A DNA stretch of 64,000 bases, taken from assembly GCA_951406725.2 (NCBI GenBank), contig OX597833.1, positions 69,812,001 through 69,876,000 of the forward strand, read 5' to 3'. This document shows positions 25,257-26,576 of the stretch, piece by piece. The translations under genes and the position numbers were made by a program. The stretch is from Octopus vulgaris (lineage: Eukaryota). Below the pieces are notes generated by a model that worked only from the letters and a program-made list of their open reading frames with translations, was not told the origin of the DNA and did not search any database. How positions within the stretch are numbered: position 1 is the stretch's first letter; the number at the start of each line of letters is the position of its first letter.

Positions 25257-25330
<74 letters not shown>

Positions 25331-25387
25331 TAGTGAATTGAATAAATGGAGTTGAACGAAGATTGAACGAGAAATCCTTTTATTGCA

Positions 25388-25467
25388 TTCTACACGTGTT
25401 TCGAAAGCCACAATTTACCAAATTCCGATTGAATAAAGAGACCATATTGTGTCTTTCTCTTCAGGAA
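25388..25467 (-). ncRNA. Type I hammerhead ribozyme motif, F2
   Basis: Reverse complement of the 26249-26328 motif. Confidence 0.9.
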
Positions 25468-26248
25468 GAAATAGGAATTCCGTTGGCAGAACAAAAACAG
25501 AACAGAGGCGCAGCAAAACAAATCGAACGAGGAGGCTCCTAAGAGCCCATGGCCAAACTGATTATCAATGTATGTTGAAATCGGGTGGTGGGTGCGTTGA
25601 AGATATTTACAGGTCAGGCAGCGGCCAATCCGGTGGGTGAGAGCACGGGGTGCGTAGGTGTTCTTTGTGACCGAGACTGAGGTTCTGACTATTTTAAGAA
25701 TATTAGGTGTATTATATGGGGCGGGACAAAATCTACTTAGAAACATGTGTGTGTGAACTGTTCTATATGTGCGCGGCCGTAAGTTGGTAAAAAGCGCTAC
25801 ACAATGGTCACTGCTGAAAAATCCGTCAGGCGGCAGAAAATATTTTATGTGTTCGTGTGTTCGTCTAATCATGCTTTGTCAAAAAAAACCTCACGTCGTC
25901 AAAACAAAACACCATTCGCCTAATGGGAGTATATCCCCTTATAGAACATATAGAACAGTTCACACACACATGTTTCTAAGTAGATTTTGCCTCGCCCCAT
26001 ATAATACACCTAATATTCTTAAAATAGTCAGAACCTTAGTCTCGGTCACAAAGAACACCTACGCACCCCGTGCTCTCACCCACCGGATTGACCGCTGCCT
26101 GACCTGTAAATATCTTCAACGCACCCACCACCCGATTTCAACATACATTGATAATCAGTTTGGCCATGGGCTCTTAGGAGCCTCCTCGTTCGATTTGTTT
26201 TGCTGCGCCTCTGTTCTGTTTTTGTTCTGCCAACGGAATTCCTATTTC

Positions 26249-26328
26249 TTCCTGAAGAGAAAGACACAATATGGTCTCTTTATTCAATCGGAATTTGGTA
26301 AATTGTGGCTTTCGAAACACGTGTAGAA
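26249..26328 (+). ncRNA. Type I hammerhead ribozyme motif, F2
   Basis: UUC-CUGAAGA-GAAAG.CACAAU..AUUGUG.CUUUC-GAAA-CACGUG-UA-GAA; stem III palindrome ACACGUGU; AAUAAA just downstream. Confidence 0.9.
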
Positions 26329-26540
26329 TGCAATAAAAGGATTTCTGTTCAATCTTCGTTCAACTCCATTTCTTCAATTCACTAATAATATTAAAATTCA
26401 ATTATCCGCACCAACGCACGGTTGCAACACCATATGGTTGTACCTCCAACCGTGCTTTCTTCTGCTGTGATTTTTGCTACCAAGGTATCGGTTAAACTTT
26501 TGATTAATCTGCAACAAGATTATTCATCTTTCTATTTCAC

Positions 26541-26576
<36 letters not shown>

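Follow-up and report, generated by a model that had tools for sequence, protein, structure and literature searches.

A head-to-head pair of copies with a tail on one side only, the recurrent geometry that an earlier note on the DNA analysed here describes, is not new: it is already drawn as the typical arrangement of Penelope-like elements (PLEs) in Craig et al. (2021; PMC8557442, legend to Fig. 2), where the mechanism is left undefined and the formation of PLE tandem and inverted ends is described as unresolved. The same layout is given in the available part of Arkhipova et al. (2013; PMC3846280), which treats head-to-head as the usual arrangement and proposes self-priming, and it is repeated in the accessible section of a curation guide (PMC8969392); the 34-bp repeat of Penelope itself is described in the accessible part of PMC2377424. 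According to the available part of Frangieh et al. (2024; PMC11167929), a purified Poseidon PLE (PAc, from Anolis carolinensis) cuts and extends both target strands in vitro, uses two internal RNA start sites that match the genomic tail ends, and is predicted to be a dimer, the later insertion steps being left unvalidated in vitro. Naiad and Hydra families that target (TA)n are listed in Octopus (PMC8557442), and PLEs account for 6.83% of O. vulgaris in the available part of PMC13282606. Non-LTR retrozymes have been argued to be non-autonomous PLE derivatives (bioRxiv 10.64898/2026.07.22.740005, available part).

Comparison with described elements

The window, which is the whole 64,000-nt stretch of Octopus vulgaris DNA that was analysed, contains head-to-head pairs inside (TA)n (Table 1) that are likely to be 5'-truncated or non-autonomous PLE insertions. 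They share with EN+ PLEs an inverted 5'-truncated copy joined at the 5' end, a one-sided extension, a (TA)n target (as in Neptune, Naiad and Hydra), and a 3'-proximal hammerhead motif. A partial tandem (pseudo-LTR), also a feature of EN+ PLEs, is seen in the F7 family; in the F2 family the arms are too short, or the unit is longer than what is seen. They differ from EN+ PLEs in the length of the extension, which is 65-156 nt here (42 nt in a miniature candidate) against 30-40 bp in PMC8557442 and the available part of PMC3846280, and in the absence of an RT/EN ORF.

PAc, too, has a pair of fixed internal ends downstream of its ribozyme; it cuts and extends both strands, and the RNA that it copies has an uncleaved ribozyme (PMC11167929, available part). 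PAc starts in an AC-rich stem-loop lacking homology with the target, and with no strand difference, whereas the ends described here fall on ATAT/TATA words that match the target and are strictly paired as long and short. Elements of the Hydra clade (PMC8557442, Files S1 and S2) have the same (TA)n preference, with one Octopus family listed and one family with an inverted 5' copy, and the helix I and helix III letters of F9 resemble by eye the Acropora Hydra-2 motif (File S2). In contrast, helix III is an even palindrome in F2 and F7, F2 has a long helix II insert, and the clade is defined by its RT/EN protein, which the copies here lack. Finally, F7 resembles the non-LTR retrozymes in being made of tandem non-coding 545-nt units, each with a type I hammerhead motif (PMC7229834, available part), unlike F2, F9 and 538-783, where no tandem is seen. 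In the available parts of the retrozyme papers no inverted arm or tail is described (bioRxiv 10.64898/2026.07.22.740005) and the word 'Inverted' is absent (PMC7229834).

An analogy with L1 twin priming had also been drawn, and it is a loose one, because the arms overlap by 75 to about 700 nt and there is no poly(A). That process, reportedly set out by Ostertag and Kazazian in 2001, likewise gives two cDNAs from opposite target strands and a 5'-to-5' junction, often with microhomology. An L1 example in the available part of bioRxiv 10.1101/2024.12.14.628481 consists of pieces that abut without overlap and ends in poly(A), whereas here there is overlap, no poly(A) and a fixed second start. Classical L1 twin priming was rejected, as the arms overlap by 75-701 nt and both end in (TA)n. 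The literature searched on PLE inverted ends contains no two-strand-priming explanation and no arm-length equality, a weak negative given that subscription papers lay mostly outside the search.

Table 1 Features of the inverted insertions (positions in the window; ends counted from the base after the hammerhead cut motif)
Feature	Position	Strand	Basis
Six TA-flush inverted loci	538-783; 25326-26543; 53988-54062; 56034-58162; 61600-61836; 61849-62305		TA-segment scan
F2-A, left (TA)n target run	25228-25325	.	TA-run scan, boundary check
F2-A, left arm (portion common to right arm); short 3' end at +63 to +66	25326-25770	-	self-BLAST, alignment
F2-A, putative type I hammerhead motif of minimal form with palindromic helix III (core CTGAAGA; cut motif after 25391)	25391-25464	-	motif match only; Rfam negative
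F2-A, unpaired centre	25771-25939	-	alignment; no second copy in window
F2-A, 9-nt-period duplication (TATAGAAC), probable 5'-5' junction	25940-25957	+	
F2-A, right arm; long 3' end at +219	25940-26543	+	self-BLAST, alignment
F2-A, putative right-arm hammerhead motif, cut motif after 26325	26252-26325	+	strict motif scan
F2-A, one-sided 'tail', about 156 nt, with GCACGGTTG/CAACCGTGC hairpin	26388-26543	+	
F2-A, right (TA)n run	26544-26913	.	TA-run scan
F2-B, left arm, long end (+219), 231 nt, 5' end within ribozyme core	61849-62079	-	alignment
F2-B, right arm, short end (+63), 226 nt, putative hammerhead motif 62170-62243	62080-62305	+	alignment, strict motif scan
F7, long arm, made up of about 2.6 tandem 545-nt units with three putative hammerhead motifs; end +291	56034-57471	-	
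F7, short arm, end +188	57467-58162	+	
F9, long arm, end +110; hammerhead core like Hydra-clade motifs (by eye)	61600-61760	-	
F9, short arm, end +41; 14-nt loop centre	61761-61836	+	
Older locus with two arms (538-690 and 697-783; 88% identity) and a 65-nt extension on one side	538-783	.	
Miniature candidate, 33-nt palindrome flush with left TA run, 42-nt right extension	53988-54062	.	
Single-armed hammerhead-bearing insert of another family, between two (TA)n runs	841-955	-	

Inverted loci in (TA)n runs

The window has 20-51% GC per kb and is rich in microsatellites. All 80 segments of at least 60 nt lying between its 224 TA runs were scanned. An inverted match was found in 13 of them. In six, an arm comes to within 3 nt of a TA run, this offset being taken for F7 from its tandem units; the other seven, where the match is internal, were left uncounted. 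A one-sided flush arm is present at all six loci and none is symmetric at both termini, an asymmetry with a probability of 0.016 (0.5^6) if each side picked its site independently. The flanks outside the TA runs are not mirrored in any of the four locus groups tested. Within a locus the arms diverge by 0-12% (1.3-12% at three loci), and the arms of one insertion overlap in template by 75-701 nt. The tails are 156, 103, 69 and 65 nt long, with 42 nt in the miniature candidate.

An ATAT or TATA word stands within 3 nt of five of the six testable ends (P about 4e-5), these being F2 short, F7 short, F7 long, F9 short and 783, with the miniature locus as the miss. Testable ends are those for which another arm shows how the template continues; for the omitted long ends, of F2, F9 and 538, this continuation is unknown or not independent. 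The AU-rich start sites that had been proposed are thus borne out at these five ends. Some ATAT/TATA words are skipped, so that the word is not sufficient, and TA slips occur at two of the short ends.

The F2 insertions

At F2-A, self-BLAST and alignment identify arms at 25328-25770 (minus strand) and 25946-26387 (plus strand) that are joined 5'-to-5', are 98.6% identical over 443 nt, and lie between (TA)n runs at 25228-25330 and 26544-26913. The hammerhead motifs fix the polarity of the arms, so that the 3' ends point outward and the 5' ends meet. The geometry that the earlier note had claimed, of arms joined 5'-to-5' with both 3' ends outward in (TA)n, one long and one short, is confirmed by the same two methods. 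Counted from the base after the hammerhead cut motif, alternating TA begins at +66 in the left arm and at +219 in the right; the left arm has a 1-nt insertion and a TA slip, and its short 3' end is given as +63 to +66. At F2-B (61849-62305) the left arm reaches TA at +219 and the right arm at +63, so that, as had been claimed, the same two ends recur 36 kb away in mirror order, with a different junction (62079/62080, blunt). The ends first reported as about 62 and 219 nt for F2, about 292 and 192 nt for F7 and about 109 and 40 nt for F9 agree with those measured here (for F7, +291 in the long arm and +188 in the short; for F9, +110 and +41), the differences of a few nt arising from microhomology with TA. 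The agreement of both F2 ends within 3 nt has a probability of about 0.001 under uniform ends, with the caveat that retroelements ordinarily have fixed 3' ends.

The F2-A junction is probably at 25940, where the TATAGAAC duplication lies 5 nt from the insertion midpoint (25934.5); the 595-nt right arm holds no such 9-nt-period duplication, and another duplication, of period 8, is found at 25848. The unpaired centre would then be further 5' sequence of the left arm, presumably in the orientation listed in Table 1. If the junction were at 25770, the arms would instead form a nested pair of 445/773. AATAAA occurs 7 nt past the right-arm hammerhead motif, and the tail region (26400-26548) has a folding z of -2.84.

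The arms of F2-B are non-nested: the short arm has about 150 nt of extra 5' sequence, which the match to F2-A confirms as part of the element, and alignment shows that 156 nt on the 3' side of the long arm are missing from the short arm. The arms of F2-A are likewise non-nested, if its junction is at 25940 as presumed. In the four-way overlap of the F2 arms there is a single site that distinguishes A from B, and both arms of each locus agree at it, as would be expected if each event drew on a single source RNA or donor. Divergence between A and B, counted by eye, is 8/151 upstream of the ribozyme and 4/231 downstream, a difference that is not significant (P = 0.07).

In both F2 insertions the two arms are nearly equal in length, at 231/226 in F2-B and about 614/604 in F2-A with the presumed junction (612/606 if it is placed 2 nt earlier). 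Such midpoint junctions have chance probabilities of 0.024 and 0.011; with the choice of two among five loci taken into account, the value is about 0.003. These figures concern a post hoc observation and depend on the presumed F2-A junction. Equal arms are not seen at the other three loci, where the ratio is near 2:1 (153/87 at 538-783, 161/76 at F9 and 1438/696 at F7).

F7, F9 and smaller loci

The F7 arms are nested, show no substitutions in 701 nt and meet at a 5-nt microhomology (TCCTT). The right arm has two 2-nt deletions absent from both left units, and these may reflect either a different template or later changes or sequence errors. The F7 units are mutually identical, and so very young. 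Strong hairpins stand right before each F7 end, with z = -4.3 and -3.5 in windows that take in some of the TA flank.

The F9 arms are also nested, with no substitutions in 74 nt and a near-perfect hairpin centre (14-nt loop). F9 and F2-B adjoin (61600-62305), with about 12 nt of TA between them, which implies that one inserted into the TA flank of the other. For the locus given in the earlier note as 536-783, which was thought probably to follow the same rule, the one-sided 65-nt extension agrees with that view, and the polarity is assumed, as the arms (538-783) have no ribozyme core; these arms are nested around a near-perfect hairpin centre with a loop of about 6 nt. More copies of this family, at 48660-48838 and 35171-35259, end near the same long end, and 48660-48688 is a possible decayed short inverted arm whose end is about 20 nt earlier than the 783 end. 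In the single-armed insert at 841-955 the 3' end is about 37 nt past the cut and the 5' end, 8 nt upstream of the core, sits directly on (TA)n.

Stops as close as those at the hairpin-like centres of F9 and 538-783 would arise by chance with probabilities of 0.14 and 0.075, respectively. Four of nine arm 5' ends fall 8-26 nt upstream of a ribozyme core; the calculated value for this clustering, P = 0.001, used a 20-nt window that was picked post hoc and is exceeded by one of the four, and included the 841 copy, which was found via its ribozyme. Clustered 5' truncation upstream of the ribozyme core is offered as a lead only.

Ribozyme motifs and coding potential

A strict hammerhead scan (core and helices I-III) gave eight motifs in three independent families, with three in F2, four in F7 and one at 841-955, and none in any of 20 block shuffles. 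The two cores of F9 were missed by the strict scan and appear in a looser one. All the hammerhead motifs have a short, self-complementary helix III, and a palindromic helix III is described for PLE ribozymes in the available part of PMC4209133. Local Rfam scans of the arms returned no hammerhead family, only sub-threshold microRNA and similar matches, and the Rfam scan of the whole window was swamped by microsatellite matches. Free folding gives no support, since the hammerhead is not the minimum-energy structure for F2 or F9 and z is near zero for the four cores; such a failure is expected for weak motifs that are thought to act as dimers. When ends were compared across families by folding, no common structure was evident. 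The eight motifs are absent from the supplement of PMC8557442, in which line breaks can hide matches, and from the available part of the PMC13282606 supplement. The hammerheads reported here are putative self-cleaving elements, recognised at the level of the motif.

No relevant match to a PLE RT or GIY-YIG ORF was obtained for a 162-aa frame or for nine read-through frames. The F2 arm gave one weak, unrelated match in Pfam, nothing in a search with longer proteins, and nothing above 0.80 in the ESM Atlas, where recognition was low; a search of its protein against 1.84 billion sequences returned two repeat-rich matches that were judged spurious. The 162-aa frame was dropped as a gene because it has no protein homology in any search; it may resemble PLE linker motifs, a resemblance that no search backs. 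The absence of protein is expected for copies that are truncated or non-autonomous, and it leaves PLE membership by protein unproven. Two exact scans of bacterial and archaeal genomes and a plasmid BLAST gave no outside copies, a tRNA search of the window gave none, and a separate repeat search added nothing beyond self-BLAST.

Formation of the inverted arms

The footprint is real and recurrent, and it belongs with Penelope-like insertions by its non-coding features: ribozyme motif, geometry and target all support the PLE assignment made in the earlier note. We favour, with moderate confidence, the proposal that reverse transcription is primed by each of the two nicked strands of the TA target, at different fixed sites downstream of the ribozyme. 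A GIY-YIG endonuclease supplied in trans would nick both (TA)n strands, for which the in vitro precedent is another PLE on AT-rich DNA. The two 3' ends would prime at different sites, one long and one short, to give the ends and words observed, perhaps aided by 4-6 nt of pairing to an AUAU/UAUA word. Both cDNAs would run toward the RNA 5' end and stop early, as the observed truncation suggests, and their 3' ends would be joined bluntly or via a few nt of microhomology, as at the junctions observed, by a repair route that we infer; the stretch between the two start sites would become the one-sided tail.

In support of this proposal, a purified PLE has two internal start sites on its RNA and extends both strands (PMC11167929, available part), the non-nested arms of F2-B are impossible by simple fold-back, and the F7 right-arm deletions, unless they arose later or are sequence errors, would not be expected had the left cDNA been copied. 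Against it count the lack of PLE protein in the arms, the negative Rfam result and the failure of the F9 core in the strict scan, as well as the unused ATAT/TATA words, the miss at the miniature locus and the end at 48660-48688 that is about 20 nt off the 783 end. In the available part of PMC11167929, moreover, PAc in vitro implies neither strict long/short pairing nor microhomology, and an AT-preferring nuclease resolving a DNA intermediate would equally leave ends at ATAT. The evidence comes from 5-6 loci, with a single family that has two two-armed copies.

The hairpin centres at F9 and 538-783 also count against two-strand priming, as they are what fold-back self-priming predicts: here the long-primed cDNA would snap back, copy itself and be cut or switched to the TA target at the short site, with later deletions breaking the symmetry of the centre. 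We regard this as possible but rather unlikely. It gives a direct account of the strict rule of one long and one short arm, and it agrees with the 5-nt microhomology of F7 and with identical arms within a locus; self-priming has been proposed for PLE inverted junctions (PMC3846280, available part), and endonuclease resolution for the tail (PMC8557442). However, for F2-B it calls for a further deletion, of about 150 nt, that by coincidence equalised the arms, and likewise for F2-A if its junction is at 25940, and both genomic PAc ends are RT start sites in vitro (PMC11167929, available part). The nesting at F9, 538-783 and F7 also fits two cDNAs that stop near one point and are joined by microhomology. 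The two-strand, two-site priming that the earlier note proposed is thus backed by the Poseidon PLE in vitro and by the non-nested arms of F2-B, while F9 and 538-783 fit fold-back equally well, and the mechanism is one that we infer.

The ends on ATAT/TATA words and the TA slips at two short ends could also reflect a later trimming of inserted copies, in which internal ATAT words slipped against the flanking (TA)n, so that the short end would not be a priming site. This is very improbable: the F7 and F9 arms, with 0 substitutions in 701 and 74 nt, have had little time to change, the same word is used at both F2 loci, and one arm always retains the long end. Foldback or MITE-type DNA transposons would have the long terminal inverted repeats and the TA insertion seen here, but with 0 of 6 loci symmetric at both termini, internal junctions that vary between copies, oriented ribozyme motifs in the arms, and a tandem array at F7, this origin is largely refuted and scarcely credible. 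Least credible of all are sequencing or assembly chimeras produced by read fold-back, to which near-perfect palindromes in low-complexity DNA might point, and for which the two 2-nt deletions of F7, being in purine runs, could be read errors; against them, arms differ by 1.3-12% at three loci, flanks are unmirrored, and the same two F2 ends occur 36 kb apart in mirror order.

A more specific and doubtful version of two-strand priming is that a dimeric PLE enzyme holds both nicked (TA)n ends on one RNA, with telomerase-like AUAU annealing and copying in lockstep. If so, every two-armed insertion would be forced to be long plus short, abortion of the complex would leave equal arms (as at both F2 loci, 231/226 and about 614/604 nt), run-off at one RNA 5' end just upstream of the ribozyme would leave hairpin-like centres (as at F9), and the genome would keep, in the position of the junction, a record of two reverse transcriptions running in synchrony. 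With arms of 1438/696, F7 matches neither pattern.

The layout is already published. What sets this case apart as a modest variant is its longer tails, its microhomology and the strict pairing, and its value lies in a test of mechanism rather than in discovery. Several young, long-tailed families in this genome make the ends and the junction easy to resolve, and the nesting of arms, the long/short pairing and the equality of arm lengths, taken over all copies, could separate two-strand priming from fold-back computationally. It is worth adding that palindromes of this kind are easily mis-called as MITEs or microRNA hairpins.

Other repeats in the window

An old head-to-head pair at 22074-22192 (72% identity) has a degenerate hammerhead core in each arm and its centre just upstream of the cores, and is not TA-flush. 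Related hammerhead-core-like motifs at 59735-59773 and 60191-60230 stand head-to-head across an (ATT)n/(ATC)n run and belong to another repeat family, a related piece of which lies near 52480-52550. Isolated palindromes at 13090-13177 and 48019-48056 have no bounding TA runs.

A LINE ORF is represented at 32782-33747 on the minus strand by its 3' part, in which Pfam identifies a zf-RVT domain. It has 14 relatives, among them an Argonauta hians protein (60% over 83%) and an Octopus bimaculoides match that covers only 13%; three matches closer than Argonauta are unnamed or labelled 'hypothetical', and one match bears a Herbaspirillum MAG label, probably through contamination. These relatives make an octopod host likely. 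A short LINE-like remnant with an RT-like frame is found to the left of F2-A (24740-24950), and another, with a stretch that looks endonuclease-like by eye, at about 39100-39400. Dispersed SINE-like families were identified by self-BLAST, one at 3435-3597, 16112-16793, 37557-37810, 47287-47620 and 60372-60917, one at 21718-22044, 48195-48645 and 50411-50954, and one at 5275-5614 and 46268-46608; some of the SINE-like families of the window occur in local tandem.
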